Part shown: one piece after another, positions 7,036 to 22,318 of the stretch | How positions within the stretch are numbered: position 1 is the first letter of the stretch | Layout: each line of letters opens with the position of its first letter | Virus record (IMG/VR): IMGVR_UViG_3300031994_000065 | Span: 17,295-81,294 of that record | DNA: 64,000 bases | From: a virus | Lineage: Duplodnaviria > Caudoviricetes | Reading direction: 5' to 3' (one strand) | The notes under the pieces: model-generated | Databases searched by the model: none | The model's input: the letters and a program-made list of their open reading frames with translations, nothing else | What the model was told of the DNA's origin: nothing | Position numbers and translations under genes: made by a program

Positions 7036-7080
7036 TCAAATCTCCTCCTTTACAAAAAAGTTAGAGAGCATAAATTTTGG

Positions 7081-7148: not shown

Positions 7149-7152
7149 GGTT

Positions 7153-7590
7153 TTAAGCTTCGACGAGATTGATGTGGATCAATTTTTGCGAATTGTTGAA
7201 ATCGTCAATCATTTTTTCAAAGCGGGTTTTAACAACCGGTTTTTCGACGAGTTCGAAATACCAGCGTTCGAAACCGTTGTCGATTGACGGGGTCGCATAA
7301 AACGCGTTGAGTTTCTCGATCGCTGTTTCCAGCGAATCAACGCGCATGTCAACGACCGGTCCCAAAGCCGCTTTGGACAGTGTTACCTGTCCTTTGCTTT
7401 TCCAGAGAGGGTTGACGCTGAAGTAACGCGCTTTTCTCGTGGCGAAGCAGGGGAACCAGTTGCCGTTGTCGTTTTCCGCAATGATTGCAACATCGAGTTG
7501 TTTGGCTTTGTTGTCGTGCAGGTCGACAAAACCATTCAACATTGCGAACGTTGCGATTGCGATTGCCGAAGTCTTTTCCATGATAAACAT
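7153..7590 (-). CDS. Hypothetical early protein (cargo of cassette A)
   Basis: 145 aa, SD AAGGAGG inside the repeated leader. Confidence 0.8.
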   Translation of the reverse strand: MFIMEKTSAIAIATFAMLNGFVDLHDNKAKQLDVAIIAENDNGNWFPCFATRKARYFSVNPLWKSKGQVTLSKAALGPVVDMRVDSLETAIEKLNAFYATPSIDNGFERWYFELVEKPVVKTRFEKMIDDFNNSQKLIHINLVEA

Positions 7591-7710
7591 CCTCCTTAAA
7601 GATGTGGATCGTAGGTTTTCGTCAATTTAGTACAAGAGAACTCCTACTAAACTCTCATACACCACGATAATATATATTCATAGGTGGGGGCGATGTCAGA
7701 TCGGAAAATT
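7591..7710 (-). promoter_or_regulatory. Repeated early expression cassette, copy A (type 1)
   Basis: CTGACA-N17-TATATATTAT, then leader GAGAGTTTAGTAGGAGTTCTCTTGTACTAAATTGACGAAAACCTACGATCC and SD; near-identical to 15874-15985 and 16715-16834. Confidence 0.9.
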
Positions 7711-7748
7711 AGGTATATTGCTATAATACATGAAAAAGATAGATAACA

Positions 7749-7772
7749 AAGGAGGGAACTAAACCCCTCCTT
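7749..7772 (-). terminator. Terminator of the exonuclease gene
   Basis: AAGGAGGG/CCCTCCTT stem at the gene end. Confidence 0.55.
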
Positions 7773-8901
7773 AAAATAATGATTTTTTCGAACGTGCAGA
7801 ATATTGATTCAGTTCGACGACATTAATTGGACTCATCTCGAAATATTTAGAATTCAGATTTTTCAATGCGTCATTCTCATACTTATCCACAAGCTGTTTC
7901 GTTATGTTGAGTTGTTGCGGTTCTGAGACCATGCCAAGTTGTCTGTCTAAATCGACGCACATGATACTGTTAGCAATTCGCTCTTTGTTATCATCATTAG
8001 GACCGTCTTTGATTGCCATTATAAGGTGTTCTAATCCAATTATTTCAGCTTCACTTATATCCAGCTCTTTGAACAATTTGTGTAATCTCTTGTATATGGT
8101 TTTCCATCCACAACCTTTGATCTTTCCGATACCGCGACGTTTATCTCCAACTATGGCAAGAATGAAAGTAATCAGGTATGCAGGAAGTTTGTGTGAATTC
8201 TTTATATCGTGTTTCTCTCTGATGATGGTAAAAAGATTCTCTTTGGTTACTATGTAACTTTCGTCACCTTTTGGATACATAACCAAGAAGTTCTTGTTGA
8301 CGTATTGCAAATCGTATTCGTCTCTGGTTATCAAAATATTCAATTGACCATCGAGTGCTTTAGAGTTGCATAACAACAGAGGAACGAGAGAACTTTCGAG
8401 TCTATTTGATGTTACCAAATATACACCTTCCACATAACCCACTATGGTTCTGAGAGCTTTGATGACAGACTCCAGAACCATATTAGTTGCCTCGTAGTTT
8501 GGATTGTCGGTGTAATCGTAAATGAATCTCTCGCGATAGTGTTTAAGAAACATCGTATTATTCAGTGTCGTGTATTTATCGTATTCATTCATGAATAGAA
8601 CGATATTAGTCTTGATTCTGTTTTTGGTAAAGAATCGACGATAATGCCCGGCAAGATTCAGAATGTTACTGATAATGGAAAAATGAAAGTTCTTGGTTTC
8701 AGTTTTATCCATAGAAAGAATGAATTCTTCTACGGTTTGGTTATGTATGCAATGAATAATTGATTCGAGATTGATGAATATATTTACTCGATCTATTACT
8801 TCTCTAATACCAACAGAACCAAATAGAAGATTCATTTTTTCGAACTTAATCTTGTGAGCATTGAATATCTTATCAATCGTTTCAGATGAACTTGAAATCA
8901 T
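7771..8901 (-). CDS. 5'-3' exonuclease / flap nuclease (T4 RNase H-like)
   Basis: H3TH-like motif GDKRRGIGKIKGCGWKT; acidic residues in LESSLV and ITRDEYD. Confidence 0.7.
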   Translation of the reverse strand: MISSSSETIDKIFNAHKIKFEKMNLLFGSVGIREVIDRVNIFINLESIIHCIHNQTVEEFILSMDKTETKNFHFSIISNILNLAGHYRRFFTKNRIKTNIVLFMNEYDKYTTLNNTMFLKHYRERFIYDYTDNPNYEATNMVLESVIKALRTIVGYVEGVYLVTSNRLESSLVPLLLCNSKALDGQLNILITRDEYDLQYVNKNFLVMYPKGDESYIVTKENLFTIIREKHDIKNSHKLPAYLITFILAIVGDKRRGIGKIKGCGWKTIYKRLHKLFKELDISEAEIIGLEHLIMAIKDGPNDDNKERIANSIMCVDLDRQLGMVSEPQQLNITKQLVDKYENDALKNLNSKYFEMSPINVVELNQYSARSKKSLF

Positions 8902-8930
8902 TTCAATCCCTTCTTCAGATAAAAAATATT

Positions 8931-8951
8931 GGGCGGGAAAGGTTCCCGCCC
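8931..8951 (-). terminator. Intrinsic terminator
   Basis: GGGCGGGAA/TTCCCGCCC stem with downstream T-run on the minus strand. Confidence 0.65.
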
Positions 8952-8976
8952 TTAACGTGTGTTTCCTTGTCAGATT

Positions 8977-9864
8977 TTATTTCGTCGTGATGTGTTCGAT
9001 GATTTCGCGGATGTCACTGCCGCCATTGCCGAGTTCGCGCAAACGTGCGACTCGGTACATCACATTGCTGCCTTGCTGAGCTGTATCGAGCAGAATGACA
9101 CGGTAAGCTCTGTTGTGCAAGAACAGCGCACTCAGAACGGCGTCCGGGTTGAGTTCGATATAGCAAAATGCTCTGCCGTTTTTGTCGCGTTTCTGAGACT
9201 CGTTCACTACGAGTTTGCTCGTATCGACAAACGGTTTGACAAGCTCTTTCAATTTTGCATCCAAACGAACGTGTGCGCCACGCGCTTTGCCGCCGAGCAA
9301 TTCGAGTTCGATGTCGTTAGCCGAGCGACCATTCACGACAAGATGTTCCATCTTCGGAAAGATGAGATACATCTTGGGAATGTCGTTCAGTACTGCAGCG
9401 CCATCCCCGAAATAGATGTAGCGGTAACCGTGATGCTCGAAGTATTTTTCGAAATACGTCGAAATGTCGCGACTCGTGAACGTGAAGATCGACCCACTGG
9501 GATCGAGTCCGAGACGATTGTCGTTCGCGCGGTTCCCAATGACACATCCGCCTTCGTAGTTATACAAACCATTCGGATCGCTCACGTCGGATTGTGGACG
9601 AGTGAAAGGTTTACCACCTCCGTCTTTCGGACGTTGCGGTTGCGGATTCGGCTGACGCTGTTCGCGCTGTTGTTGACGCGGTTGATGTACTTGCTGCTTG
9701 GGTTTCGGAGTAGGTTCAGGTTTAACCACCGGCTCTGCCTCCTCTTCTTTTTCGAATTCGTCGTTGTCTTCAAACGGATCGGGCAATTTGCTCGCTGCCG
9801 ATTTGACCGTGCTTTCTTCGCCGACTGCACGGTACAAGCGAATTTCCTCGCTGCTTACTTCCAT
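8977..9864 (-). CDS. Hypothetical early protein with Pro/Gln-rich N-terminal linker
   Basis: 295 aa, SD AAGGAGG, early promoter at 9909-9918. Confidence 0.8.
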   Translation of the reverse strand: MEVSSEEIRLYRAVGEESTVKSAASKLPDPFEDNDEFEKEEEAEPVVKPEPTPKPKQQVHQPRQQQREQRQPNPQPQRPKDGGGKPFTRPQSDVSDPNGLYNYEGGCVIGNRANDNRLGLDPSGSIFTFTSRDISTYFEKYFEHHGYRYIYFGDGAAVLNDIPKMYLIFPKMEHLVVNGRSANDIELELLGGKARGAHVRLDAKLKELVKPFVDTSKLVVNESQKRDKNGRAFCYIELNPDAVLSALFLHNRAYRVILLDTAQQGSNVMYRVARLRELGNGGSDIREIIEHITTK

Positions 9865-9908
9865 GAGTAATGCGCCTCCTTCTTTAATTTGTGGTCGTAA
9901 CCGAGTTT

Positions 9909-9918
9909 ATAATATATA
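9909..9918 (-). promoter_or_regulatory. Early promoter core TATATATTAT
   Basis: Exact match to the motif found 9 times upstream of minus-strand genes. Confidence 0.7.
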
Positions 9919-9993
9919 CTTAGAAATCGCGTTAAAATACAGCCACTCCTATAGTTAGTTGTGACTGCATTTATAATAGATTAGCGATTCCTT

Positions 9994-11040
9994 TTATCTG
10001 TTGACTTTTGCAAAATTTCTTTCCATAAGTGACCTAACTTGCGGAGCCCAGTTATAGTTATCCGGGCAGTAGACGGGGTTGATCGAACTGACCGTATCTA
10101 AGCCGCGTGCAAAATAACACTCATTGATAAGTTGCCCGAATGCATCGATATTTTCTTTTTTCGAGCTGTAACTTAATCCCATCATTCCGAAAAGGTTATT
10201 ATCATTCAACGCCATAAATGAAGTCCCATGACCGCTTTCGAGTTGTGCAACAGCCAAAGCAAATACGGCATTGACTCCGTATGTGGATTCCATTTCGTAG
10301 AACACATGACCTAACCCTTCGAGACCGGTTCCGGCAACAATCGATTCCAGTTCATCCATACTCAATCCACATCGTTCGGTTATTACGTCTGAAAGCGGAT
10401 AAACCGGTGGAATAAGGTTGACTCTGTAATGTTCGATTTTGCCACTGCTAAGAAACGGTTTGACGTGTTCATAGTAATACGAACTGGGATAGTAATCGAC
10501 TTTAACGAATCGTTTTTCAATATATGCTGCTTCGCCGATGCAATAGAAGTTGCTGTTGTAGATTAACGGAACAATCTCGTATGTATTGTACTTGTCTAAT
10601 TGTATCGGTTTGTCGTCTTCAGCAGGCTGTTTGTAACATATCGCGTCGAGTTCGTTTCGAGTGAATAACACGCCGACGATTTTTTCTGTCGAAGGCTTCT
10701 CAAATTTGTCAAGTTCGCAGTACGCTCTGTATTCGCCAGCTACTCCCCATTGTGGATTAATGGGGCTGACCGAGATAGCAGTACCACTAGGAAGCGTGCC
10801 AATGAGTCGAGCCGAAGAATCGGGTTCGGCATACATCGGAACATCTTGTGTAGAGACGCAAACCAAGTCTGCAAATTTGTCTATTTCTACAAGGGGTTCC
10901 GCTTCCGCAACGTTTGTCTGAACAATCTGTTCATCTGTCGCCGGATTGACTCGAGGATTGAAGAAGTTGTGATTGATTCCGGCTCCAATCAGCATCGCAC
11001 CAGTTACACAGATCGCCGCGATTAGATGTTTAGTATACAT
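9994..11040 (-). CDS. Cell-wall hydrolase: N-terminal signal/TM, SH3b-like domain, glucosaminidase (GH73-like) domain
   Basis: YGVNAVFALAVAQLESGHGTS...NNLFG motif; SH3-like MYAEPDSSARLIGTLPSGT; late promoter at 11069-11080. Confidence 0.8.
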   Translation of the reverse strand: MYTKHLIAAICVTGAMLIGAGINHNFFNPRVNPATDEQIVQTNVAEAEPLVEIDKFADLVCVSTQDVPMYAEPDSSARLIGTLPSGTAISVSPINPQWGVAGEYRAYCELDKFEKPSTEKIVGVLFTRNELDAICYKQPAEDDKPIQLDKYNTYEIVPLIYNSNFYCIGEAAYIEKRFVKVDYYPSSYYYEHVKPFLSSGKIEHYRVNLIPPVYPLSDVITERCGLSMDELESIVAGTGLEGLGHVFYEMESTYGVNAVFALAVAQLESGHGTSFMALNDNNLFGMMGLSYSSKKENIDAFGQLINECYFARGLDTVSSINPVYCPDNYNWAPQVRSLMERNFAKVNR

Positions 11041-11283
11041 TAGTGGATTCCTCCTTTGAGATTGAGTTTACCACTATGTCCGCAGCTTTTAGGAAATAAC
11101 CGTATCTTATTTTGCTTAAATCAAGCAATATTTGAGTTACACCAAACCAATTATTAAAATTTCATTAAAAATGTACTGGTCAAGATATATACATCGAATC
11201 ATTGCGTGTATTCTGATGTGAATATCGGCTGATTTGGGCTGAAGACAAAGCGATAATACACTACACAGAAAGAAGGTGAAGAA

Positions 11284-12594
11284 ATGGGTCAATTATTACG
11301 AGGACAGATGTTCGGAACAGGTTTTGAGAAGCAAATTTATCATGATAATCATTCTGAGTTCGAGCAGAAAGTCCATAGCCAGTATGCGAAATATCTCAGT
11401 GAACTTCCAATATTCACTGAATACTTTCACATAGTTAAAGCATTAACTACGGAAGATACCGGTTTGTTAAACATTGATAAATTGACTGGAGACAGCTCAC
11501 CGTTCAGATACAATCTCATTAAAGATTTTCCTCTGTTTGGTCTCGAGCAGATTCTTCTCGATATCGAAGATAATGATGATGTTGGTTTACAGACAAACTA
11601 CGAGGGTGAGGCAATAATTCTTCCACAAACTATAACTCCGTTACCGGATGATGCATTTATTGCAACAGCTCTTGGAAAGAAATGGTTTTTCCGTGTAATC
11701 GAAATTCATTACGACACAATTCTTGCGAAGAACTATTACAAGATTAATTTTGTGGTAAAAGGTGTCGATAATGGTTATTATTACGAGGATTATCTTAAGA
11801 AGGTAAACGACACATTCATTTGCGTTTACGACAATTATGGAACACAAGACGCATTTCTCATAAAGGAAGAGAATTATGATATTACTAATAAGCTCCAGAA
11901 AATGGCAGATGAATTATCAAGGAAATATCTCACTTTCTTCTATAATGAGAAATATAATGCGTTGATGGTTAAGAATCCACATGGTTACAATATGCTGTAT
12001 GATGCTTATGTGAATTACTTCTGTAATGAGCAATCGATATTTGCTCAGAATCCAAGAAACTTTTGGAATTATAAGTTCTATGTAGAAACCAGACCGGAAT
12101 TTGAGTTCTTCTATAACGCAAACTCAATTCAATCGGTTGTCATTAACAAAGATTTGGAATTGATTCAATCACCAAGATTTATGCGGTATTATGATACTAT
12201 TCCCACTTTCACCGATTCAATATTCCAGTTCTATGGAGATTTTGACACTTCCGGAATAACGATAAGTGAACGACATATAAATCCATTTGGTAGACAGATT
12301 CATCCGTTAATACCTCAAGATTTGTTTGAAGCAATCTGCTCTAATGGAAACGTTGATACCACAAATTTGATCTACAATGTCTTGGTGAAATACATCAATA
12401 ATGATATTGAAAGTGTAGGAAAACTTTTAGGTAATTTCAATGACAAAATTCGCGTTAGACCCACATACTTGGATTATGTCTTGATACCTCTATTCCTGTA
12501 CATTCTTTATCAATACAAGAAGTCTGTTACCAAGACAAACAATAATTATGTTGAGAATGAACAGCTTCGACAAAAACTTAAAATCTCACACTGA
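11284..12594 (+). CDS. Conserved jumbo-phage virion structural protein
   Basis: 436 aa; TGDSSPFRYNLIKDFPLFG motif recalled from phiKZ/AR9-like virion proteins. Confidence 0.5.
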   Translation: MGQLLRGQMFGTGFEKQIYHDNHSEFEQKVHSQYAKYLSELPIFTEYFHIVKALTTEDTGLLNIDKLTGDSSPFRYNLIKDFPLFGLEQILLDIEDNDDVGLQTNYEGEAIILPQTITPLPDDAFIATALGKKWFFRVIEIHYDTILAKNYYKINFVVKGVDNGYYYEDYLKKVNDTFICVYDNYGTQDAFLIKEENYDITNKLQKMADELSRKYLTFFYNEKYNALMVKNPHGYNMLYDAYVNYFCNEQSIFAQNPRNFWNYKFYVETRPEFEFFYNANSIQSVVINKDLELIQSPRFMRYYDTIPTFTDSIFQFYGDFDTSGITISERHINPFGRQIHPLIPQDLFEAICSNGNVDTTNLIYNVLVKYINNDIESVGKLLGNFNDKIRVRPTYLDYVLIPLFLYILYQYKKSVTKTNNNYVENEQLRQKLKISH

Positions 12595-12597
12595 AGA

Positions 12598-12939
12598 ATG
12601 GAGGAATTTGAGATGCTTAAGACATTACGTTCACAATTGGCAACTAAAAAGGCAGATGCTTCGTTTGAAGGATTTGTCCTTGATGCTATTGAACGCGCAC
12701 CTCAGAGAGATATCATGCTCGAAGAATGCGATGCTCCGGAATGTTGGCATGAAGACGACGATTACTGCGATGAAGATATTGGCAAGTTGATCGATGCTCT
12801 TCCCGAATCCGACATCGATTTGGATAATGAAGCGATTATTCAAGGAATTATTCGTGGTCGCGACGAACAGGGTAACGAGAAAGATATGTCAGTGGAAGAA
12901 TGTTGCGAGGCGTATATACCGCCCACTGAAGAAGTTTAA
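12598..12939 (+). CDS. Small acidic hypothetical (virion) protein
   Basis: 113 aa, cotranscribed, very acidic. Confidence 0.65.
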   Translation: MEEFEMLKTLRSQLATKKADASFEGFVLDAIERAPQRDIMLEECDAPECWHEDDDYCDEDIGKLIDALPESDIDLDNEAIIQGIIRGRDEQGNEKDMSVEECCEAYIPPTEEV

Positions 12940-12954
12940 GAAAGGATGAAACTA

Positions 12955-13464
12955 ATGGAAACTGATATGACTACATTCGTAGACAAGAAACTTGTAAAAG
13001 TTACAGATCGTGGTCCGATTATGCCGCTCGGTGGAATCTATGGACCCACTCTTCCTCAGATTATGACCGTTAAAACGATTGCGATTCTCTTGCAAAAGGG
13101 TTATCACGTTACGGAAATTCTGAATAATAAGTCTGAAGTTAAACTCAGTCTTTCGAACTACAATGTCGACATCAATGGCGATGGTGGTGAAGGTCTTAAA
13201 AAGGTTAAGAAACCTGATGAAGATATTAAGCCTCTGCCGAAGAAAAATGCCAAAGTCGAAACTCCTGCGCCTGAAGCAAAAACTGAAAAACCTGCTGAAA
13301 AAGAATCGGTTAAAGTTGAGACTGCCGTCGTTGAGAATAAGATTACCGTATCAGCGGCTGGAGGTAAGGCTGAAGCCGATTCTAAAAGGAATGGTAATGA
13401 CGCTGGAGGTCTTATGAGTACCAAAAAAAATAAGCCTAAGGCGGACGAACTTACCTCTAAGTAA
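12955..13464 (+). CDS. Hypothetical protein with Lys/Glu-rich tail
   Basis: ATG 12955 after AAAGGA; followed by a terminator. Confidence 0.7.
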   Translation: METDMTTFVDKKLVKVTDRGPIMPLGGIYGPTLPQIMTVKTIAILLQKGYHVTEILNNKSEVKLSLSNYNVDINGDGGEGLKKVKKPDEDIKPLPKKNAKVETPAPEAKTEKPAEKESVKVETAVVENKITVSAAGGKAEADSKRNGNDAGGLMSTKKNKPKADELTSK

Positions 13465-13481
13465 TTTGGGATTAAAACGAG

Positions 13482-13526
13482 AAAAAAAAACCGGGGAGCA
13501 ATCTGATAGAATTTGCTCCCCGGTTT
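13482..13526. terminator. Bidirectional terminator
   Basis: AAACCGGGGAGCAA/TTGCTCCCCGGTTT stem with a 9-T tail on the minus strand. Confidence 0.8.
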
Positions 13527-13553
13527 AACCGTTTTTTGAACTGCTGCTACTGA

Positions 13554-13589
13554 TTAGCGGCGAGTTCCACAAGTGCTATTGTCACCCAT
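13554..13589 (-). CDS. Candidate 11-aa micro-peptide MGDNSTCGTRR
   Basis: SD AAAGGAGG 8 nt upstream of ATG; lies between an early promoter and a terminator. Confidence 0.35.
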   Translation of the reverse strand: MGDNSTCGTRR

Positions 13590-13635
13590 GGTCGTCACCT
13601 CCTTTCAGTAACAGGAGGGTGGTTTTACGTTTCAT
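13582..13635 (-). CDS. Candidate 17-aa leader peptide MKRKTTLLLLKGGDDHG
   Basis: SD GGGGGAGG upstream; overlaps the SD hairpin of the 11-aa ORF. Confidence 0.35.
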   Translation of the reverse strand: MKRKTTLLLLKGGDDHG

Positions 13636-13700
13636 TTACCTCCCCCCACATTTATTAGATTTAAGTCGCAGCTACTAATTTCACTGCGTCTTATACCTAT

Positions 13701-13733
13701 ATAATATATATTTTCGATTCTAAGATATGTCTA
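13701..13733 (-). promoter_or_regulatory. Early promoter TAGACA-N17-TATATATTAT
   Basis: Same architecture as the cassette promoters. Confidence 0.7.
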
Positions 13734-15120
13734 AATCGATTTCTCCAGTTCTACTGACAGAAATACCTTCAATTGTCGATTCCAAAACCGTTTTGGTTCT
13801 GTAGAATGTGATTCTCCGTACAGGCATCTTCGGCAATTTTCTTTCTCTGGAACGTAAGAAAATGTCAGATATATGAATGAAGTAATTCTTGTGAACATCG
13901 TTATCAAACATTTTCACCATAGTTACGATTGACTTTTCTTCGTCTCGATACACATGAACCGGGATATATATCGTATCTTTCATCTTCACTGCTACTTTGA
14001 ATGCAGTATCTCGCTCAATATCGTCATTGTCTCCACATATGTAATATCCGTCTATGATGCCTCTGCGGTCCATTTCCAATACATCGTGCGCAACACTGGT
14101 TCCCTCTTTAATTGGTGGGAATCCAAAATTTTCGACCATGTTTAACAGAGCCATATCACATATCTTATTGACGATGCGATAATTGCTTAAGAATTGATGG
14201 ATTTCTTCATCGGAGAAATTTCGAAAGTTTGAAGGTCTGGCTAAGAAACCGAAATCATTCATATTACTGAGATTAATTCCATTAGTAGCCCAATCTCTTG
14301 GATTTAGAAGTTCATCTTTCATTCGCCAGTCATATTCGCTAGTGAGTGGCCATTGGTCATCATCCGGTTTACTTTGTCTAATAACAAAGTCAATATCGTC
14401 ACACATCTTAGTGATTATCGGAGCATCAATATGCTTCTTGATTTCACCAAATGCATTTATTAACATATCTTTGTTAGCAACTCGCCGAATCTTTTCTAAC
14501 ATATTGGCGTCGTACACCGATTTTGTATAGAAAAAATTTCTGGTTATGTCGTAGCAAAGTTTCAGGTCTGTGTCATAGACGTAATCCGAAATTCTTGTGG
14601 TGTTAAATCGTCCGTTCAGAATATAATCTTTATCGAGATAATTCTGAGCGGATTTCTTAATAGCTTGGTTTATTGCGTCATTTAATCTGTCACTAAACTG
14701 ACATGAATGATGTTGATGCGCTGGATCTACCAGTTGATTCCTGAAGATATTAGACCATTTATCAAATGTGAGCACACCTTCAGCATAATCAGTCGCGTTC
14801 ATTATGACGTGTTTTTCTTCCATTGTGATGGTTGGGGCTTCTAAGTAATCTATAGAAGACGATTCTGCTGCGATAATATCTTTATCTGCGTATGGTTTAA
14901 ATGCCGAATATTTCTTCAGTTTGACTTTCATGTTGTATTGTTTGGCGAGTCTGTTTATATTCGCAGCTAATTGCTTACGCTTTTTTGGTGGGCATGTATG
15001 GAAGTACGCAATCGCACTACGGACGTGATTTTCGTCGGGCATTGGAAAAGCTCTATCTTCCGGAAGACCGAACTGATCTGCGGGGAGTTCTTTTCTTTGA
15101 GCACTAGAAAGTTTAGGCAT
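13720..15120 (-). CDS. Hypothetical virion protein with N-terminal DUF6582-like domain
   Basis: FGLPEDRAFPMPDENHVRSAIAYF motif; late promoter at 15138-15149. Confidence 0.65.
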   Translation of the reverse strand: MPKLSSAQRKELPADQFGLPEDRAFPMPDENHVRSAIAYFHTCPPKKRKQLAANINRLAKQYNMKVKLKKYSAFKPYADKDIIAAESSSIDYLEAPTITMEEKHVIMNATDYAEGVLTFDKWSNIFRNQLVDPAHQHHSCQFSDRLNDAINQAIKKSAQNYLDKDYILNGRFNTTRISDYVYDTDLKLCYDITRNFFYTKSVYDANMLEKIRRVANKDMLINAFGEIKKHIDAPIITKMCDDIDFVIRQSKPDDDQWPLTSEYDWRMKDELLNPRDWATNGINLSNMNDFGFLARPSNFRNFSDEEIHQFLSNYRIVNKICDMALLNMVENFGFPPIKEGTSVAHDVLEMDRRGIIDGYYICGDNDDIERDTAFKVAVKMKDTIYIPVHVYRDEEKSIVTMVKMFDNDVHKNYFIHISDIFLRSRERKLPKMPVRRITFYRTKTVLESTIEGISVSRTGEIDLDIS

Positions 15121-15180
15121 CGTTTATCACCTCTTTTTAGTGCTTTGTCGCGAGGGGTAAAAATAGGTGAAATTCGGAGA

Positions 15181-15206
15181 AAAAAAAACCACGCGGTTTT
15201 GCGTGG
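15181..15206 (-). terminator. Intrinsic terminator after cassette B cargo
   Basis: CCACGC/GCGTGG stem plus 8-T tail on the minus strand. Confidence 0.75.
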
Positions 15207-15216
15207 CTGAATTGTT

Positions 15217-15873
15217 TCAATATGCGAAAGTCATAGGAATACCCATGTCTTTCAACATGTTGAAACAGCTGATGAAACCTTCTCTTGGTTTGAGATACTC
15301 AAACCGAAAGAAGACTTTCCAATTTTCGCCGTAGCGTTTCTTGTAAACTTTTTCCGCTTCTCCGGATTCGAAATTCGTGACGTAGTTTTCGTACGCCTTT
15401 TTCGAAATCCAGAACCCCACGATTTTTTGCGGAGCGACAAACGCCTCGGTGTAGGCGCTGTATTCGTCGTCGAGTTTTTCATAGTCGTCAACGATGAACT
15501 CCTCACGAATTGATGGGTAACGCTTCCCATCAATCGTGTAGCTCCCGCAATCAACGGAGGCCATTAACGACGTTTCGCCTTTCACATAAACGCCTATTAC
15601 GCCGAGTCCTCCGTTCATGAGCCTAGATTCAGGCCCGGGTTTCGAGCAACTTATCTCGGCTCCGGTGCCAAGAATGGTCAACAGTTTTTCGAGTGCGACC
15701 GCAGGCGACTGCGATCTGTTGACAGCGTTGAGGCCGTGCGCCCAGACCACTCCGTCAGTTCCTCTCGGAACATGACGTGATTTGAGCGCCTTAGCGTTTT
15801 CGAACGCCTTTCTCTCCTCGTCGTTCAAATCATCTGATTTCACACCATTGACGTAAATGCTCATTTCAAACAT
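15217..15873 (-). CDS. Hypothetical early protein (cargo of cassette B)
   Basis: 218 aa, SD within the repeated leader. Confidence 0.8.
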   Translation of the reverse strand: MFEMSIYVNGVKSDDLNDEERKAFENAKALKSRHVPRGTDGVVWAHGLNAVNRSQSPAVALEKLLTILGTGAEISCSKPGPESRLMNGGLGVIGVYVKGETSLMASVDCGSYTIDGKRYPSIREEFIVDDYEKLDDEYSAYTEAFVAPQKIVGFWISKKAYENYVTNFESGEAEKVYKKRYGENWKVFFRFEYLKPREGFISCFNMLKDMGIPMTFAY

Positions 15874-15985
15874 CCTCCTTAAAGATGTGGATCGTAGGTT
15901 TTCGCAATTTAGTACAAGAGAACTCCTACTAAACTCCTATACACCACGATAATATATACTTATGGGAGAGGGTAATGTCGGAACG
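15874..15985 (-). promoter_or_regulatory. Repeated early expression cassette, copy B (type 1)
   Basis: CCGACA-N17-TATATATTAT plus conserved leader and SD. Confidence 0.9.
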
Positions 15986-15998
15986 TAAAAAGGAGAAA

Positions 15999-16041
15999 AA
16001 GCCAGAACCTATTAAGGTTCTGGCTTTGTCACGCTTCTTGT
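15999..16041. terminator. Hairpin terminator, duplicate of 17044-17085
   Basis: AAGCCAGAACCT/AGGTTCTGGCTT followed by TGTCACGCTT in both copies. Confidence 0.75.
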
Positions 16042-16070
16042 TGTGGGAGGTAAAAAATATCTCCTTGAGG

Positions 16071-16133
16071 GAAAAAGAATCTGTGCCGCAAATGTGTGCG
16101 GTGTCTGTGCCGATTTACGACACAGATTCTTTC
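16071..16133 (-). terminator. Branched 3' structure/terminator (copy 2)
   Basis: AAAGAAUCUGUG/CACAGAUUCUUU stem, CCGCA/UGCGG hairpin, U-tail; covaries with 7081-7148. Confidence 0.7.
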
Positions 16134-16138
16134 GTGAA

Positions 16139-16714
16139 TCATTTCCAGCCTTTTGCGCAGATAACCTTCGGAATATATTTCCAATACTGCACCGATTGCG
16201 CGCAGGTGTAAAGACGTATTGTCTTGTCAGCCCAACACACAAGCTTTCCATTGTTATATGGAAGTAGTATTGTTTCATATAAACTGATAGTGTTTTTGTC
16301 GCGTTTGAAACTGCGCCCGTTGAAATGGAAGTCTTGATGGCTACCATTACAACAAGAGATGAGTGTGTACTCTCCCTTGTCGAATTTGTTCGCCATCGAG
16401 AAATGATTTTCTTTCTTGCCTTCGATAATGAATTCTGCGAATCCTCCGTGAACGCAAGCAACCAGCCCCTGATCTGTTACTAACGGGACTGCTTCCATCT
16501 GGACGGCGAACCTTTTCAAGAATGACCATATGGTCAATTTCTTTCCAGTATCCGCGTATCTCACATCGGTGTACAACGACGCAGTTCCGTTTTTGACTTT
16601 GAAGTACGCGATAACGTACATCGCGCCGAACAGAATTGCCCCTCCTGTGAGACCCCAAATGACGTTAATAACGGAGACGATCGAATTTACCAGAGCGTTT
16701 TTCATTTCAAACAT
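16139..16714 (-). CDS. Hypothetical early protein with N-terminal transmembrane segment (cargo of cassette C)
   Basis: 191 aa; hydrophobic SIVSVINVIWGLTGGAILFGAMYVIAYF. Confidence 0.8.
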   Translation of the reverse strand: MFEMKNALVNSIVSVINVIWGLTGGAILFGAMYVIAYFKVKNGTASLYTDVRYADTGKKLTIWSFLKRFAVQMEAVPLVTDQGLVACVHGGFAEFIIEGKKENHFSMANKFDKGEYTLISCCNGSHQDFHFNGRSFKRDKNTISLYETILLPYNNGKLVCWADKTIRLYTCAQSVQYWKYIPKVICAKGWK

Positions 16715-16834
16715 CCTCCTTAAAGATGTGGATCGTAGGTTTTCGTCAATTTAGTACAAGAGAACTCCTACTAAACTCTCATACACCACGATAATATATA
16801 CTTAGGAGGGTGGGCGATGTCAGATTGAAAAATT
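16715..16834 (-). promoter_or_regulatory. Repeated early expression cassette, copy C (type 1)
   Basis: CTGACA-N17-TATATATTAT plus leader identical to copy A over the core. Confidence 0.9.
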
Positions 16835-16855
16835 ATATCGTGTCAACATATCATT

Positions 16856-17034
16856 AGATGCATCTATAATACTAATGTGCGGGCAATAGCTCCACTTTAA
16901 GGGAAGATAGGTTATTGGTGACAAACGCCTAAGTTGTACTCGGCTTATATAGTAGACTTCGGATTAACCCGCCTCGAAGTCGCCGCGTAACAGAATTGGC
17001 GGCTAGGCCTATCTTCCTGGGAGTCGTTTTTTTT
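16856..17034 (+). ncRNA. Candidate structured ncRNA (multi-way junction), family unknown
   Basis: Late promoter at 16845-16856; 12-bp closing stem GGAAGAUAGGUU/GGCCUAUCUUCC, four internal hairpins, G-U pairs favour the plus strand; ends in an 8-T run; no ORF. Confidence 0.65.
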
Positions 17035-17043
17035 GCGGACAAT

Positions 17044-17070
17044 AAGCCAGAACCTTGTAGGTTCTGGCTT
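17044..17070. terminator. Terminator after nrdD
   Basis: 12-bp stem AAGCCAGAACCT/AGGTTCTGGCTT. Confidence 0.75.
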
Positions 17071-17091
17071 TGTCACGCTTTTTGTAGTTTG

Positions 17092-19377
17092 TCAGATTGA
17101 AATCATCGGTACGGTTTTGTGATGCCACGATTCGTGTTCTTTGCGTTTGCAGTGTGGGCATTCGTTTTTTATAATACCGGTATAACCACAGACCGGGTCG
17201 CGGTCGACAGGGTGGTTCACACTGAAATATCCCATATTTGCATCGTGCATGGCTCGTACAAGTTTTTCAAAAGCTTCTACATTTTGGAGAGGATCCCCAT
17301 TGTACTCAATATAGCTTATCGCGCCAGCATCACATTTTTCATGGTATGGTGCTTCGATACGAATTTTATCGATAGCTCGTATCTTATAATACACAGGAAC
17401 ATGGAAACTGTTCGTGATGTACAATCTATCGGTGACACCACGTATGATTCCATAATCTTTGCGATTCGCTTTTTGAAATGTATTTGCTGTCCCTTCGGCT
17501 GGAGTTGAAAAGGTTGACCAATTCATTTTTTCTTCAACTTTAAACTTGTCGGTTTTGTCACGAAGATGTTGGACGATTTCCAATCCGAACCGTTGCGAAT
17601 CCTCATTCTCTCCATGATGTTTTCCTGTTAATGCTATTAAAGTTTCTGCAAGACCACAGAATCCAATAGAAAGGGTAGCATTTTTCAAAACTTTTCGTAT
17701 AGTATCATTTGGCGATAATTCATCGCTTCCCATCCAAACGCCTTGACCCATCAAAAACGGAAAATTGAAAACGTGTTTATCTGCAATAATTTGAAAACGG
17801 TAAAGAAGATAATCGTGACTAAGTTGAATATAGTGATCGTATATCTCGTAGAAACGTTTTATGATCTCTTCTTGTGGTGCGTTGTTTCCAAGTTGACGTT
17901 TTGCTTCGAGTGCAAATTTTGGAAGATTAAGAGTCACAAAACTAAAATTTCCTCTTCCACCAGTTTCTTCAGGTCCATTCACATTTCCGATAACACGGGT
18001 ACGGCATCCCATCGTTGCAGCGTATGTATTATAATTTCCTGGTTTATAATACTTCAAGTTAAAAGTGGCATCACACGATACAAAGTTCGGGTACAACCTC
18101 TTAGCACTCACTTCACATGCACGCTTAAATAAGTCGTAATTTGGATCGCCTGGGTTGAAATTGATTCCTGATTTAATCTGAAAAATCGAAATTGGAAATA
18201 GTGGAGATTCTCCCTTTCCCATTCCAGCATCAATAGCGTTGAGAGTTTCTCTTATTGCCAATCGTCCCTCTGGAGAAGTATCCATACCAAAGTTGATAGA
18301 ACTGAACGGAACTTGCCCGCCTGACCTAGCGTGTAAGCTATTAAAATTATACACCATTGCTTCCATAGCTTGACGTGTCTCTTCTTCAGTGGCATCTTTT
18401 GCTATTTCATAAATTGAATGAAGACCATCCCATTCGTTTCGCTCGACTTCCATGAAAACTTTACAGAAAACTCTCCATATTTCTTCTATGGTTTCCCAAT
18501 AATCACTAGAATTCTTAATGTCTTTATCTTCGACGTAATGTATCTTTGTTCTATCGAATTCTTCTTTGACTTCTTTACTAACCGTGTGCTTGTCGTACAT
18601 GTTCGATGTCACAAATTGTCCAAATTCAACCGTTTTAGATATAATTTCTTTCACGAATGTTTTTCTGATCCCTTCAGCCATCGCATAATCTTCTGCATTT
18701 AGTGACTGGCCTCCGAAACAGTCGTTCTGGTCTGATTGAATTGCCACACATGCTAAAGCTGCATATGATCGAATAGAGCCTGGTTCTCTTATATGACCAT
18801 GACCTGTTGAAAACCCACCGTGAAACAGTTTCAGTAGATCAATTTGACAACAATTCAACGTTATCATTGAGAAATCGTTATCGTGTTCATGAATGAAATG
18901 TTGACGATGTGCTTCAGCAAATTCTTTTGGTTGGGTATTAAGCGCGAATTCTTTTGCTCCATCTGATCCAAGTTTAAGCATTATGCCCATTGGACCATCA
19001 GTGTTAATATTTGCATTTTCCCTCTTATCGTCCATCGCTGAGGCATCAGTAAACAAAATGTCTTTATAAGTTTGCATGAGATTCTTCTTCGATTCCCGAC
19101 GAAGCATATGTTTATATCTGTAACAAATATACTTCTTGGCTATCTCGAAAAATCCGTGTTGCATAAGACGACGTTCCACGACATCTTGAATATCTTCGAC
19201 TGATATTTCAGTACGATCACCAATATCGGACTCTATCTGTTCAATGATATTCTCAAGATCGCGTTCGGTCATTTGTTCGACGGAAGCGTTGTTAGCTCCA
19301 ACAATCGCTTTGTAAATTTTCGATCGGTCGTATGAAACCAACGAACCGTCGCGTTTGATAACGCGTTCAAGATTCAT
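17092..19377 (-). CDS. nrdD: Anaerobic (class III) ribonucleoside-triphosphate reductase large subunit; C-terminal glycyl-radical motif absent
   Basis: N-terminal ATP-cone VIKRDGS; LNCCQID; GGQVPFSSINFG; finger-loop MGCRT; NHPVDRDPVCGYTGIIKNECPHC. Confidence 0.93.
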   Translation of the reverse strand: MNLERVIKRDGSLVSYDRSKIYKAIVGANNASVEQMTERDLENIIEQIESDIGDRTEISVEDIQDVVERRLMQHGFFEIAKKYICYRYKHMLRRESKKNLMQTYKDILFTDASAMDDKRENANINTDGPMGIMLKLGSDGAKEFALNTQPKEFAEAHRQHFIHEHDNDFSMITLNCCQIDLLKLFHGGFSTGHGHIREPGSIRSYAALACVAIQSDQNDCFGGQSLNAEDYAMAEGIRKTFVKEIISKTVEFGQFVTSNMYDKHTVSKEVKEEFDRTKIHYVEDKDIKNSSDYWETIEEIWRVFCKVFMEVERNEWDGLHSIYEIAKDATEEETRQAMEAMVYNFNSLHARSGGQVPFSSINFGMDTSPEGRLAIRETLNAIDAGMGKGESPLFPISIFQIKSGINFNPGDPNYDLFKRACEVSAKRLYPNFVSCDATFNLKYYKPGNYNTYAATMGCRTRVIGNVNGPEETGGRGNFSFVTLNLPKFALEAKRQLGNNAPQEEIIKRFYEIYDHYIQLSHDYLLYRFQIIADKHVFNFPFLMGQGVWMGSDELSPNDTIRKVLKNATLSIGFCGLAETLIALTGKHHGENEDSQRFGLEIVQHLRDKTDKFKVEEKMNWSTFSTPAEGTANTFQKANRKDYGIIRGVTDRLYITNSFHVPVYYKIRAIDKIRIEAPYHEKCDAGAISYIEYNGDPLQNVEAFEKLVRAMHDANMGYFSVNHPVDRDPVCGYTGIIKNECPHCKRKEHESWHHKTVPMISI

Positions 19378-19413
19378 AAGCGTTACCTCCTTTGAATTAG
19401 TTTAAGGGTAAGT

Positions 19414-19441
19414 TGAGGAAGAGATTCGAATCTCTTCCTCA
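19414..19441. terminator. Palindromic hairpin after the amidase gene
   Basis: TGAGGAAGAGA/TCTCTTCCTCA. Confidence 0.6.
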
Positions 19442-19449
19442 TTTTGAGT

Positions 19450-20052
19450 TTATTTGTAATTCTTTCTGAATTCTGGGAGATACCAAAGAGCTTTTCCTCT
19501 GAGAACGTCTCCACCGCGAGAACCGTCTATTGCATGAGGATTAAACTTTGGGGATTCTGAAGTTTCAAGATATTCCAAATCCCAGCGTTCACAAGTTGAT
19601 TTCGGTCCATATTGTTCATGACACCACAAACCATCTTCATTATCTGCAGCTTCTCCATGTGTCATTACATGACCTGGATTGATTGTGAGCCATAATCCTT
19701 CAGCTACTGCACAAACAGCCAAAGCCATACTTTCAATCTGTGCAGCGGTTGGAGGATTCGGACCTAAGTCTTTGGTATCCGCATATACCGCACAACATAT
19801 TGTGATGTTGATAGCTCCACTGTTACGTTTGTATGTTCCGGCGATAACATCAGCAAAATTATCTGTACTGGCATAATATTTGCCATTCTTATCGATATTG
19901 ATATGGTAGTCGTCAGACTTATTATCGTACCAACCAGCAGTCCAGTGGAGATAAATCTTTGGTTCTCTACCAAGTGCTTTTGCTTTATCCCAAACTTCTT
20001 CTCGGGCAGCAGAAGCGAGTTGATAGATTTCTTTAAGTGTAACTTCACGCAT
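19450..20052 (-). CDS. N-acetylmuramoyl-L-alanine amidase (Amidase_2-like endolysin)
   Basis: IYLHWTAG, YHINID, RNSGAINI, VMTHGE motifs; late promoter at 20070-20081. Confidence 0.8.
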   Translation of the reverse strand: MREVTLKEIYQLASAAREEVWDKAKALGREPKIYLHWTAGWYDNKSDDYHINIDKNGKYYASTDNFADVIAGTYKRNSGAINITICCAVYADTKDLGPNPPTAAQIESMALAVCAVAEGLWLTINPGHVMTHGEAADNEDGLWCHEQYGPKSTCERWDLEYLETSESPKFNPHAIDGSRGGDVLRGKALWYLPEFRKNYK

Positions 20053-20105
20053 TTTCGTTCACCTACCTTTATGAGATTGTCTTGAATATTAAGAGGTTAG
20101 AAATG

Positions 20106-20134
20106 AAAAAAAAATCTCGCCCATATGAGCGAGA
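20106..20134 (-). terminator. Terminator after cassette D cargo
   Basis: TCTCGC/GCGAGA stem plus 9-T tail; homologous to 20957-20988. Confidence 0.7.
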
Positions 20135-20147
20135 CCGCAGCGGAGCG

Positions 20148-20636
20148 TTATTGCTCCAAGAGTTCATTGAGATAAACGACATCTTCAAACGAAAGATTGT
20201 TTTCCTTGATTATGGCGCGAGCCCAGTTGATGTAGCCGCCGAAGCAATACTGATCGTCAAAATAGTAGCGAATACCGTTGATGTCGACATACTCGCATTC
20301 TATTTCATCATCGAGCGTTTTGAACCATTGGCTTCCGACACTGATGCGGTTGGCGCGTTCGATCCGGGTAGGATTCGTTGCTCCATTGCAAATTATTTCG
20401 GCCGCCTGTTTCGGTGTTACGATGTCAACATCAAAGATGCCAACCTCGTGCCAATCATCGCTCACAACAGCATACTTTTTGTAATATGCCGTGCTGATGT
20501 AGTAATGCGGATGACTATGGCACTCATGGAAGTTCGGGCACCGGGATCCGATGCACTCACCATCGAAATCCTCTGGTTCAGTGCATTGAAAGTTGAGTAT
20601 TTGACCCAGCTCGTATCCGAAATCGTCTGTGGTCAT
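20148..20636 (-). CDS. Hypothetical early Cys/His-containing protein (cargo of cassette D)
   Basis: 162 aa; SD AAGGAGG 8 nt upstream. Confidence 0.75.
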   Translation of the reverse strand: MTTDDFGYELGQILNFQCTEPEDFDGECIGSRCPNFHECHSHPHYYISTAYYKKYAVVSDDWHEVGIFDVDIVTPKQAAEIICNGATNPTRIERANRISVGSQWFKTLDDEIECEYVDINGIRYYFDDQYCFGGYINWARAIIKENNLSFEDVVYLNELLEQ

Positions 20637-20640
20637 TCCA

Positions 20641-20751
20641 AATCCCTCCTTAAGGGATCGTAGGTTTTTTCATCTTAGTAGTGAGCTGCCTACTTAACTC
20701 TTCTACGCGTATATAATATATAAATGTGGGTGGGGGTGATGTCGGATTGAA
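20641..20751 (-). promoter_or_regulatory. Repeated early expression cassette, copy D (type 2)
   Basis: CCGACA-N17-TATATATTAT plus leader GAGTTAAGTAGGCAGCTCACTACTAAGATGAAAAAACCTACGATCC; identical core to copy E. Confidence 0.9.
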
Positions 20752-20815
20752 ATTAAACCCTTCTTAAAAAAGGTAATTCGATTCCGATGATGAATCATAT
20801 AAGGAGGCAAACATC

Positions 20816-20995
20816 ATGAAATTTGGTGGTATTACACTTGGTGGTCGGAACATTATCGTACCAACCAGCAGTCCAGTGGAGATAAATCTTTGGTTCTCTA
20901 CTAAATGCTTTTGCTTTACCCCATACTTCTTCTCGGGTATTGCGAGGTTGGAAAACAAAAAAAAATCACGCCCGTATAATGAGCGTGACCGGTGA
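20816..20995 (+). pseudogene. Chimeric remnant: 5' end of the 21684 gene fused to an amidase fragment
   Basis: MKFGGITLGG start, then 20852-20937 matches 19921-20006 at 82/86 nt; its late promoter is degraded. Confidence 0.85.
20957..20988 (-). terminator. Terminator after cassette E cargo
   Basis: TCACGC/GCGTGA stem (compensatory variant of TCTCGC/GCGAGA) plus 9-T tail. Confidence 0.7.
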
Positions 20996-21010
20996 GCGTG
21001 ACGTGACCAG

Positions 21011-21496
21011 TTAGAAGAACCATCCCATTTTGCGGGCGGTTTCGCGGAAACGTTCCCAATTTTCGTCGCGGATCGTTGATACCGCTTTGTCTTTGACGCT
21101 TTCTACAATCGCATCGTAGACATCGCAGTCCCACTTATCGGGCAACTTGATCTCATCGTCCCAATCCCAGTTCTCAATAAATGTGATCTGGTTGCGGCGG
21201 ATGATGTCATCATGGCCTGATTCCGGCGGAAAGATCTCGTAGTACTCATCGTACATTTCGTCGAGCTTCGACGAGCTGTAATAGTCGAGATGATACGTCG
21301 AAACGAACGCCTTCACGTCCATCTCATCTGAGATGAGCGCTTGGAAATCATCGAGATAATCCGAATGGACCGTCTCGAAAAACTCCCAGTTTTTCGCATA
21401 ACGTTGATCGTATGGGAGCACTTTCTTGACCATCTTGTCCTTGAGAGAGTCAAGAAGCGCCCTTTCTCTCACGTCGAGGTCGCTGTACTTAATCAC
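21011..21496 (-). CDS. Hypothetical acidic early protein (cargo of cassette E)
   Basis: 161 aa, GTG start 8 nt after AAGGAG. Confidence 0.75.
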   Translation of the reverse strand: MIKYSDLDVRERALLDSLKDKMVKKVLPYDQRYAKNWEFFETVHSDYLDDFQALISDEMDVKAFVSTYHLDYYSSSKLDEMYDEYYEIFPPESGHDDIIRRNQITFIENWDWDDEIKLPDKWDCDVYDAIVESVKDKAVSTIRDENWERFRETARKMGWFF

Positions 21497-21500
21497 TCTA

Positions 21501-21642: not shown

Positions 21643-21683
21643 ATCCGATTCTAATGATGAATCATATAAGGAGGCAAAACATC

Positions 21684-22316: not shown

Positions 22317-22318
22317 CG

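Follow-up and report, generated by a model that had tools for sequence, protein, structure and literature searches.

The 64,000-nt stretch analysed here (the window) is a piece of the genome of an uncultured AR9/PBS1-like jumbo phage. AR9 and PBS1 are its nearest cultured relatives and are distant (proteins only about 25% identical to those of AR9); the probable host is a Firmicute. The phage encodes a homologue of an AR9 RNA polymerase subunit (22.6% identity, E = 6e-7, n = 1), before which stands one TATATATTAT-type promoter. The window was read together with an adjoining contig, giving about 160 kb in total. Pattern scans of IMG/VR and the JGI metagenomes returned this phage's own contigs as sole matches, and a 478-aa protein used as scan query against the metagenomes found no match.

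Five minus-strand ORFs (A–E) lie in the window at the positions given in the preliminary description, and each is directly preceded by a copy of one cassette (Table 1). The 14-mer AAAACCTACGATCC occurs in the window exactly five times, once before each ORF (the boxes of Table 1); with up to two mismatches allowed, 0.65 occurrences are expected by chance, and five were reached in none of 100 shuffles. The alignment extends this to a conserved block of about 110–125 nt before each ORF and separates two subtypes, type I (A, B, and C) and type II (D and E). Type I copies are 84–94% identical to one another, D and E are 100% identical, and the two types share 65–75% identity. The claim that the same cassette stands before each ORF is thus confirmed by the 14-mer count and the alignment. 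The count of five holds for the window and becomes nine once the adjoining contig is read, where four further copies precede four further genes, making nine unrelated cargoes. Every one of the nine units has its own terminator.

Table 1. Positions of the cassettes, their cargo genes, and neighbouring features in the window
Feature	Position	Strand	Details
Cassette A (type I)	7582..7707	-	upstream element 7677-7707
Cassette A promoter TATATATTAT	7667-7676	-	predicted transcription start G 7660; box 7606-7619; ATG 7581
Cargo A	7153..7581	-	142 aa counted from second ATG
3' element and terminator of A	7040..7152	-	stem 7094-7116
Cassette B (type I)	15865..15989	-	promoter 15949-15958; predicted start 15942; box 15889-15902
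Cargo B	15217..15864	-	215 aa; terminator stem 15187-15208
Cassette C (type I)	16706..16831	-	promoter 16791-16800; predicted start 16784; box 16730-16743
Cargo C	16139..16705	-	188 aa; N-terminal segment hydrophobic
Tandem terminators after C	15998..16138	-	A-like 3' element, then nrdD-terminator copy (15998-16044)
Terminator following nrdD	17040-17088	-	copied at 15998-16044
Amidase-like gene X and nrdD block	17092..20052	-	X 19450-20052; nrdD 17092-19377
Cassette D (type II)	20637..20753	-	promoter 20713-20722; predicted start 20706; box 20655-20668
Cargo D	20148..20636	-	162 aa, Cys/His-rich; terminator 20113-20136
Tandem-duplication junction	20767..20937	-	gene Y start copy 20767-20857 and gene X copy 20852-20937
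Cassette E (type II)	21497..21618	-	promoter 21578-21587; predicted start 21571; box 21520-21533
Cargo E	21011..21496	-	161 aa, GTG start; terminator 20964-20990
Gene Y	21654..22247	+	divergent from cassette E; anchor for slot comparison in relatives
Cargo F (most of it) and terminator	63827..64000	-	79 aa, 63890-64129; cassette F just past window end

Each cassette consists, in order, of an upstream element, a TATATATTAT-N6-G promoter, a leader, and a cargo-specific ribosome-binding site. The upstream element is made up of CYGACAT, located 16 (±1) nt from the promoter, and a C-rich tract. The leader is conserved over its first 52–55 nt, which end in AAAACCTACGATCC, referred to herein as the box. 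The promoter core is identical in sequence to that of the AR9 early promoter, which is read by the virion RNA polymerase and has the experimentally mapped consensus AAATATATATTAT-(6N)-G+1 (PMC5312081). This AR9-type core with a G six bases downstream is present in all nine cassettes. The 160 kb contain 24 exact TATATATTAT cores, 21 of them with G at the predicted start (by direct count); the AR9 genome itself has 26 occurrences of the core. By analogy with AR9, the virion polymerase would transcribe the cassette genes from this G right after injection. No other leader family is repeated among the about 30 early promoters. The cassettes are not among the matches of a sigma-70 promoter scan, and their upstream region is C-rich, not AT-rich.

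Other readings of these elements were tried and rejected. The upstream element has the GACA of an AR9-type late promoter, but T-A/G is missing at the right distance; it could also be read as a sigma-A −35 box (TGACA), although it is absent from the promoter-scan matches. Read as part of a short upstream ORF, the box would fall in different frames in leader subtype Ia and in subtypes Ib/II; hence, it is not coding. Neither is it a feature of the AR9 clade at large, being missing in 18 AR9 early leaders and in the distant relatives L052 and L055. Judged by these comparisons, the cassette is specific to this lineage.

The cassettes of A, B, and C had been described as running into shared first codons (ATGTTT; MFEM in B and C), which are probably an untranslated spacer past the ribosome-binding site. 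The ATGTTT directly abuts AAGGAGG, whereas a second in-frame ATG, 9 nt farther downstream, is normally spaced, and copy-to-copy identity ends exactly at this second ATG in the A/F and B/C pairs. For both reasons, the true starts of A, B, and C are probably at 7581, 15864, and 16705.

The leader is a compact conserved RNA without a described family: Rfam 15 at gathering scores gave no leader match over the whole window, and a search of the leaders alone, run up to E 10, gave only chance-level microRNA matches for type I (E at least 2) and none for type II. All 12 cassettes examined allow a hairpin beginning at +1, whose loop contains GUAGG, the only 5-mer complementary to the box (CCUAC). The leader may form a 5'-terminal hairpin whose loop pairs with the box, which would place an H-type pseudoknot at the 5' end of the mRNA, where it would act by stabilising this end, by binding a regulator common to these genes, or both. 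All eight distinct sequences (100%) have the box helix paired, one of them through a double change from G:C to A:U. For the nine pairs scored, 98.6% of cells are paired versus 15–56% with the partner slid, and the covariation score is 0.254 versus 0.134 in shuffles (0 of 500 as high), values obtained on the same sequences from which the model was derived and with one compensatory change among them. Against the pseudoknot stand a rival hairpin in types Ia and Ib that is 4–5 kcal/mol more stable in nested folding, and an imperfect loop-to-box complementarity in B', a relative's orthologue of B. Hairpins over the ribosome-binding site also fold in most cassette copies. Occlusion of this site as a trait of the cassette was rejected, since the pairing probability is 0.55 versus 0.53 in 110 other genes of the phage (p = 0.5; scorable for five of the nine cassette genes).

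As the preliminary description held, the five cargoes show no mutual similarity; blastp finds none, and their DNA identity (31–54%) is at background level. Over the nine copies, cargo sizes range from 79 to 215 aa, and compositions differ. None of the five proteins belongs to a Pfam, PHROG, or PADLOC family. An orthologue of cargo A (64% identical) stands behind cassette K2 of the relative L059. The AlphaFold model of cargo A is unusable (pLDDT 39); its Atlas features carry a weak likeness to N-terminal pieces of SMC/MukB (score 0.92, 141 shared; below the reliable range). Cargo D has no relative among 5.8 billion proteins, and the Atlas gave nothing usable for it. Cargo B is the sole cargo folded with confidence (pLDDT 91) and belongs to a family of 29 representatives with one invariant His and one invariant Glu. 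Its model probably has an ADP-ribosyltransferase-like fold: among 48,161 solved chains, the best match is the mono-ART CteC (Z 6.5, rmsd 3.8, 135 aligned residues), the only chain with a Z of at least 5, followed by DarT and Tpt1 (Z 4.1). Foldseek E-values for cargo B are all at least 0.05, the family has no match in the PDB by sequence, and its longer members contain no Pfam domain.

The 3' elements had been described as terminator frames. The matched pairs stand, A with C and D with E, joined by F with G (G lying beyond the window), but these are pairwise families only, with no frame common to all. The terminators of A and C are homologous, with compensatory changes in the stem. Variants of the 5' part are common to A and F and to C and G, whereas terminators are shared by A and C and by F and G, so that all four combinations exist. 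Furthermore, one variant of the upstream element is common to B (type I) and H (type II), and cassette K1 of L059 is a type I/type II chimera. The cassette copies are evidently mosaic, with 5' and 3' modules that reassort. The nrdD terminator is copied after C; hence, the C unit is bracketed by direct repeats. D and E belong to a tandem duplication in which the cassettes are identical over 99 nt and the flanks 91–100% identical, but the cargo is unrelated. At its junction, the copy of the gene Y start meets a copy of about codons 25–53 of gene X at a short microhomology.

Relatives of this phage differ at the same slots. Next to gene Y, where E is found here, relatives carry J, a 61-aa gene, q62, or r104, and the cargo of this slot differs across five relatives. 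Identical cargo at each slot, or cargoes that are diverged paralogs, had been named as arguing against swapping; instead, relatives carry different cargo in a given slot, and no cargoes are detectable as paralogs. A larger rearrangement is seen in L059, which has the gene order 376–[K1]–k61–X–nrdD–[K2]–A'–478, compared with 376–[A cassette]–A–478 at the same locus here. The X–nrdD block is located between cassettes D and C in the window and between K1 and K2 at the A locus in L059, which retains both cassettes. The left flank of A matches that of K1, and the upstream flank of C matches that of K2; both endpoints of this 3.8-kb difference lie in cassettes. The flanks in L059 indicate agreement with what recombination from cassette to cassette would predict. 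The orthologue B' (64% amino acid identity) keeps the upstream element, promoter, and box (one C to T), and its leader middle is unrelated to that of B; likewise, the upstream element and box survive in relatives' orthologous cassettes where the leader middle has changed past recognition. In the more distant L052 and L055, the early genes of these slots vary although no cassette accompanies them; slot variability thus does not require it.

Taken together, the repeat is probably a self-contained early-gene expression cassette whose dispersed copies double as recombination sites. Homologous recombination between cassettes, within one genome or between co-infecting relatives, would excise, insert, stack, and replace genes, a mechanism already suggested for the PeSLs of T4-type phages. 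The earlier proposal that recombination between conserved frames moves cargo fits the differing slot cargo and the L059 endpoints, evidence that is comparative throughout and drawn from metagenome assemblies, in which repeats can give rise to chimeras. A more far-reaching version, offered tentatively, is that the leader represents a new class of phage cis-regulatory RNA with a pseudoknot from the first base, read by a phage or host factor and controlling an accessory early regulon. The same DNA might then serve as portable homology for gene capture and relocation, including that of the 3.8-kb amidase–nrdD block, via circular intermediates.

The strongest alternative, itself unlikely, sees in the cassette a regulon only: the nine genes would answer one regulator (a leader-binding protein, a small ligand, or an RNase), and the rearrangements would be illegitimate events nearby. 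Functional selection predicts just such retention of the box and upstream element over a diverging leader middle, the sole readable duplication junction (D/E) is a microhomology in genes X and Y outside the cassette, and the distant relatives vary at these slots without it. However, identity within subtypes is 84–100% over the whole 100 nt, including positions that are free to vary between subtypes, and hence points to recent copying or conversion beyond constraint. Moreover, the mosaic copies and the K1 chimera need crossovers within the cassette, and the 3.8-kb difference ends in cassettes on both sides.

Recombination between homologous cassettes also accounts for the observation that would best suit integron-like mobile cassettes, in which a recombinase recognises the box and inserts promoterless genes. 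In every subfamily, similarity stops right after the box (GATCC), and seven different ribosome-binding segments follow; however, homologous recombination between partly homologous cassettes yields the same sharp edge. No integrase or recombinase is found by Pfam/PHROGs among the ORFs scanned or around the relatives' cassettes, A/F and B/C share sequence past the box up to the ATG, and the final bases of the box are not constant across relatives (GATCC, GTTCC, GTTTCC), all of which makes a site-specific system very improbable. Fast divergence of paralogs after tandem duplication, with no swap, is scarcely credible despite three tandem pairs (B–C, D–E, and H–I) and the nearly equal lengths of D and E, because identity between D and E falls from 91–100% in the flanks to the background level over just a few bases on either side, with no detectable similarity between the proteins, a pattern that divergence by point mutation cannot produce, and because cargo size and composition vary as described above. 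Mis-joining of metagenome contigs at repeats, which could fake mosaics and rearrangements, is equally hard to credit: the contig does break (127-nt overlap) about 130 nt from cassette F, and another assembly diverges directly after the F terminator, but repeats of about 100 nt that are mostly 84–94% identical would not readily mislead an assembler, independent samples show the same arrangements (L028, L031, and L032; L059 and L060; G001 and G002), and the cargo/cassette junctions are unique sequence.

Jumbo phages carry hundreds of orphan genes, whose acquisition and exchange are poorly understood. A recombining early-expression cassette offers a concrete and testable route for such exchange and extends the PeSL idea, developed for T4-like phages using host sigma-70, to a phage equipped with an RNA polymerase of its own. 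It also points to a group of genes (nine here, with others in relatives) whose expression probably falls in the first minutes after infection, the phase in which a phage is expected to take over the host and counter its defences; that the cargo itself has an anti-defence role may be surmised on this ground. For the engineering of phages of this kind, the promoter–leader unit could provide an off-the-shelf module for early expression.

Among known systems, lambdoid morons are likewise one-gene inserts between other transcription units, each equipped with a promoter and a terminator. However, they lack shared conserved flanks, whereas the flanks here form a repeated family that apparently guides recombination. 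Integrons rely on an integrase, one common promoter, and attC at the 3' end of every promoterless cassette; the units described here each have their own 5' promoter. Structures at the very 5' end and before the ribosome-binding site are found in the mRNA-stabilising stem-loops of ompA and B. subtilis and in the T4 gene 32 leader pseudoknot. The cassette leader resembles these in a predicted structure that starts from the first transcribed base with a loop paired to a downstream single strand, and has no sequence relation to them. The AR9 early promoters (Lavysh et al. 2017, PMC5312081) share with the cassette the identical core, the G six bases on, and leaders of tens of bases, but the 18 AR9 early leaders have neither box nor upstream element nor repeated leader, all of which the cassette has; a motif left without explanation in the 5' UTRs of early genes is noted in the AR9 paper (PMC5312081). 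Closest in function are the PeSLs (promoter-early stem-loop cassettes) of T4-type phages (Arbiol et al. 2010, PMC2839356; Comeau et al. 2014, PMC4122927), to which the preliminary description had likened the cassette. Both are dispersed motifs of roughly 100 nt before orphan genes that end at the ribosome-binding site and start codon, terminators insulate their units, the motifs mark the endpoints of the insertions, deletions, and replacements by which related phages differ, and nrdD is among the associated genes. A further trait of the PeSLs is the formation of mini-circles when neighbouring motifs recombine. The likeness holds for how the system works but does not extend to family membership. 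The PeSL promoter is of the sigma-70 type (−35, −10, and AT-rich upstream) and that of the cassette of the AR9 virion-RNA-polymerase type. The PeSL motif contains a stem-loop terminator, whereas the cassette has a C-rich upstream element and a transcribed leader with a conserved helix, its own stem-loop being located in this leader and the terminators after each cargo gene. Finally, PeSL phages are T4-like, and the phage described here is an AR9-like jumbo phage. The cassette is a functional analogue of the PeSLs and not one of their members.

One cassette, made up of an upstream element, an early promoter and a leader ending in a conserved "box", precedes a series of unrelated small genes (cargo) in this phage. 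The 14-mer AAAACCTACGATCC of the cassette has five exact matches in the window, all on the minus strand and 20-40 nt 5' of five ORFs (cargo A-E), which confirms that these ORFs lie behind a common cassette as the preliminary description had it; by chance, 0.65 matches are expected at ≤2 mismatches. The conserved block is ~110-125 nt long and occurs as two subtypes, type I (A, B, C) and type II (D, E). Type I cassettes are 84-94% identical to one another and the cassettes of D and E 100%; across the types, identity is 65-75%. Four further copies (F, G, H, I) are located on the contig G001. The nine cargo proteins (79-215 aa) exhibit no mutual similarity that could be found, as had been claimed for the first five, with DNA identity at the background level of 31-54%; none matched a Pfam, PHROG or PADLOC family. 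Downstream of every cargo gene, there is a stem-loop and a T-run. The shared sequence had also been read as the first codons of A, B and C, which probably has to be revised. These "codons" touch AAGGAGG without a gap, the next ATG, 9 nt downstream, is normally spaced, and the identity of the pairs A/F and B/C ends exactly there; hence, the starts are placed at the downstream ATG.

The window covers positions 17295-81294 of a viral contig of 81 kb, which by estimate makes up one third of a genome. Its genes include NrdD, a phiKZ-type internal head protein and a head-tail joining protein. Judged by protein similarity, AR9 and PBS1, jumbo phages of Bacillus, are its closest cultured relatives (~25% identity). 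G001 (79 kb) is taken as the continuation of this contig because its first 127 bases are the contig's last 127 bases; both together give the 160 kb that were read. Relatives were found via homologues of cargo B, of gene Y (divergent from cassette E) and of the 478-aa neighbor of A, and every sequence compared is a metagenome assembly. Over 26.8 kb, G001 is matched without any difference by G002, a contig of a different sample. It leaves the window's contig right after the T-run of the cargo F terminator, and its next 27 kb have no counterpart in the 160 kb, meaning either an assembly join or a structural variant whose breakpoint falls on the terminator of a cassette.

The promoter motif TATATATTAT is present in every cassette and at ~15 other intergenic sites, with a G six bases downstream at 21 of 24 exact sites (counted from the site listing). 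It is the core of the AR9 early promoter, which was mapped by experiment as AAATATATATTAT-(6N)-G+1 and is used by the virion RNA polymerase after its injection (PMC5312081). AR9 itself (KU878088.1) was confirmed to contain 26 such sites. Here, one of the copies outside the cassettes drives a gene homologous to an AR9 RNA polymerase subunit, which would be expected of an early promoter. Because of the match to the core of the AR9 virion-polymerase promoter, the cassette genes are, by analogy, probably immediate-early genes. TATATATTAT-N6-G is letter-for-letter equal in these 160 kb and in AR9, though identity of common proteins is only ~25%; it seems that the way in which the virion polymerase recognizes its promoter has been conserved much more strongly than the proteome. 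The upstream element CYGACAT keeps a constant distance of 16 (±1) nt to the promoter, with a C-rich tract in between that in relatives is a pure run of 8-11 C (L028, L031, L057, L058 and L059). The run differs in length between L028 and L031, samples of one phage, which hints at slippage altering the spacing of upstream element and promoter.

The leader is conserved over 52-55 nt with the box at its end and represents the only repeated leader family among 30 such promoters (27 kb of a third contig included). Nothing similar was found among AR9 early leaders, and an Rfam search gave no match even at E 10. RNAalifold chose a single helix between GUAGG and CCUAC of the box. In addition, a hairpin of 7-10 bp starting from the first transcribed base, with GUAGG in its loop, is formable in 12 of 12 cassettes examined. 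Judged from these sequences, there is about an even chance that both helices combine into an H-type pseudoknot with an A-rich linker. In variant J, a cassette of a relative, GUAGG is changed to AUAGG and the box to CUUAU, so that one G:C is replaced in a compensatory manner by A:U and a G-U pair arises in addition, and one position at the hairpin base is U-G, G-C or U-A depending on the variant. Pairing is found in 98.6% of cells over eight distinct sequences (slid partners, 15-56%), and the covariation score is 0.254 versus 0.134 in shuffles (0 of 500 as high), both scored on the same sequences from which the pseudoknot was derived. Types Ia and Ib can form a competing hairpin of greater stability, and the leader of B', the cargo B orthologue, fits the pseudoknot imperfectly. 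Hypothetically, the leader protects the 5' end or offers a common regulator a place to dock. A cassette-specific occlusion of the ribosome-binding site was discarded, as cassette genes do not stand out in this respect. A leader RNA without a described family would be a second, less secure novelty.

The cassette of B' (64% amino acid identity) retains the upstream element, promoter and box (one C to T change), and its mid-leader is unrelated to the leader here. Further variants occur in L057 and L059 (J, K1, K2). To judge from these relatives, the cassette is under selection. In the more distant L052 and L055, the cassette is absent, and the promoter core is retained as such or in closely similar form. 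Cargo at the same slot differs among relatives, in line with the gene slots described before: the slot beside Y contains E here and, behind a cassette, J in L057, whose Y is 84% identical. In a relative at 94%, it is occupied by a 61-aa gene; L031 (65%) has q62 there, and L055 (52%) has r104. A q62 homologue is found in this genome at a different locus, behind a non-cassette early promoter; thus, early orphan units change locus without the cassette as well.

The copies are mosaics. A and F share an upstream variant and the pre-ATG segment, likewise C and G. Terminators pair differently, A with C and F with G; therefore, each of the two 5' modules occurs with each of the two 3' modules, in four combinations. 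An upstream variant common to B and H precedes a type I leader in B and a type II leader in H. The matched 3' elements described before are thus confirmed for A with C, and likewise for D with E. The flanks of D and E, including copied pieces of Y and of the amidase-like gene X, are 91-100% identical around unrelated cargo. D and E lie within a tandem duplication of ~930 nt, in which identity gives way to unrelated sequence over a few bases, just past the box and again at the terminator; its junction is a short microhomology of X with Y. This would be most simply explained by unequal exchange involving two genomes that had different genes in the same slot. The C unit is flanked by direct repeats of the post-nrdD terminator. 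Terminators of one family, with a conserved prefix AAGCGTGACAAAGCC and stems varying by compensatory changes, follow nrdD, C and a 262-aa gene.

L059 shows 65-88% DNA identity (478-aa protein, 91%). Its gene order is 376 - terminator - K1 - k61 - X - nrdD - terminator - K2 - A' - k45 - 478, where A' is the cargo A orthologue and 376 and 478 flank the A locus. The window has 376 - terminator - A cassette - A - 478, and X-nrdD lies 10 kb off, between cassettes D and C. Alignment matches the left flank of A to that of K1, the cargo behind A to that behind K2, and the sequence 5' of cassette C to that 5' of K2. K1 is chimeric: its start is of type I and its linker of type II, with 13 of 14 positions matching H versus 10 of 14 for A. 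This pattern is what would be left if two cassettes recombined, X-nrdD were excised and then reinserted at a third cassette. For PeSLs, this route has been proposed as the mini-circle scheme (PMC2839356). Since the distant relative L055 has the arrangement found here too, it is probably older than that of L059. Taken together, the mosaics, the D/E duplication, the L059 flanks and the K1 chimera argue for the suggested movement of cargo by recombination between frames. nrdD is one gene in the window and split in L059 and L055, possibly by an intron or mobile insertion.

Coordinates of features in the window and in related contigs
Feature	Sequence	Positions	Remark
C-run	L028	3320-3345	
C-run	L031	861-885	minus strand
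q62 homologue	window	75907-76170	~55 aa, GTG start
nrdD	window	17092-19377	761 aa
Split nrdD	L059	6422-8986	gap ~290 nt, overlaps reverse ORF
Split nrdD	L055	5289-7812	gap ~270 nt, structured-looking
ORF-free stretch	window	16845-17034	between nrdD terminator and cassette C; cassette-proximal end conserved upstream of K2 (L059)
Terminator	window	15998-16044	after C
Terminator	window	17040-17088	after nrdD
Terminator	window	22305-22334	after 262-aa gene
Divergence of G002	window	63827-64000	at cargo F terminator
Divergence of G002	L018	6900-7860	

Cargo B belongs to a family of 29 representatives, with an invariant His and an invariant Glu in a 19-member alignment. In an unbiased search of 48,161 chains, its confident model (pLDDT 91) gave the mono-ADP-ribosyltransferase CteC as sole match with Z of at least 5 (Z 6.5), followed by DarT and Tpt1; hence, cargo B probably adopts an ADP-ribosyltransferase fold, at moderate scores. 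Cargo A has a 64% identical orthologue in L059, and its structure prediction gave no usable fold. No relatives of cargo D were found among 5.8 billion proteins, and cargo C starts with a hydrophobic N-terminal segment. An anti-defence role of the cargo is a guess, a reasonable one for early accessory genes.

An integron-like reading was rejected because the units carry promoters individually and the ORFs scanned contained no recombinase. The unit is moron-like, but with a common recombining frame. PeSLs are the closest known system in operation, and the resemblance noted previously holds to this extent. However, the motif that defines PeSLs includes a sigma-70 promoter as well as a terminator stem-loop, both of which this cassette lacks, and PeSLs belong to an unrelated phage group.
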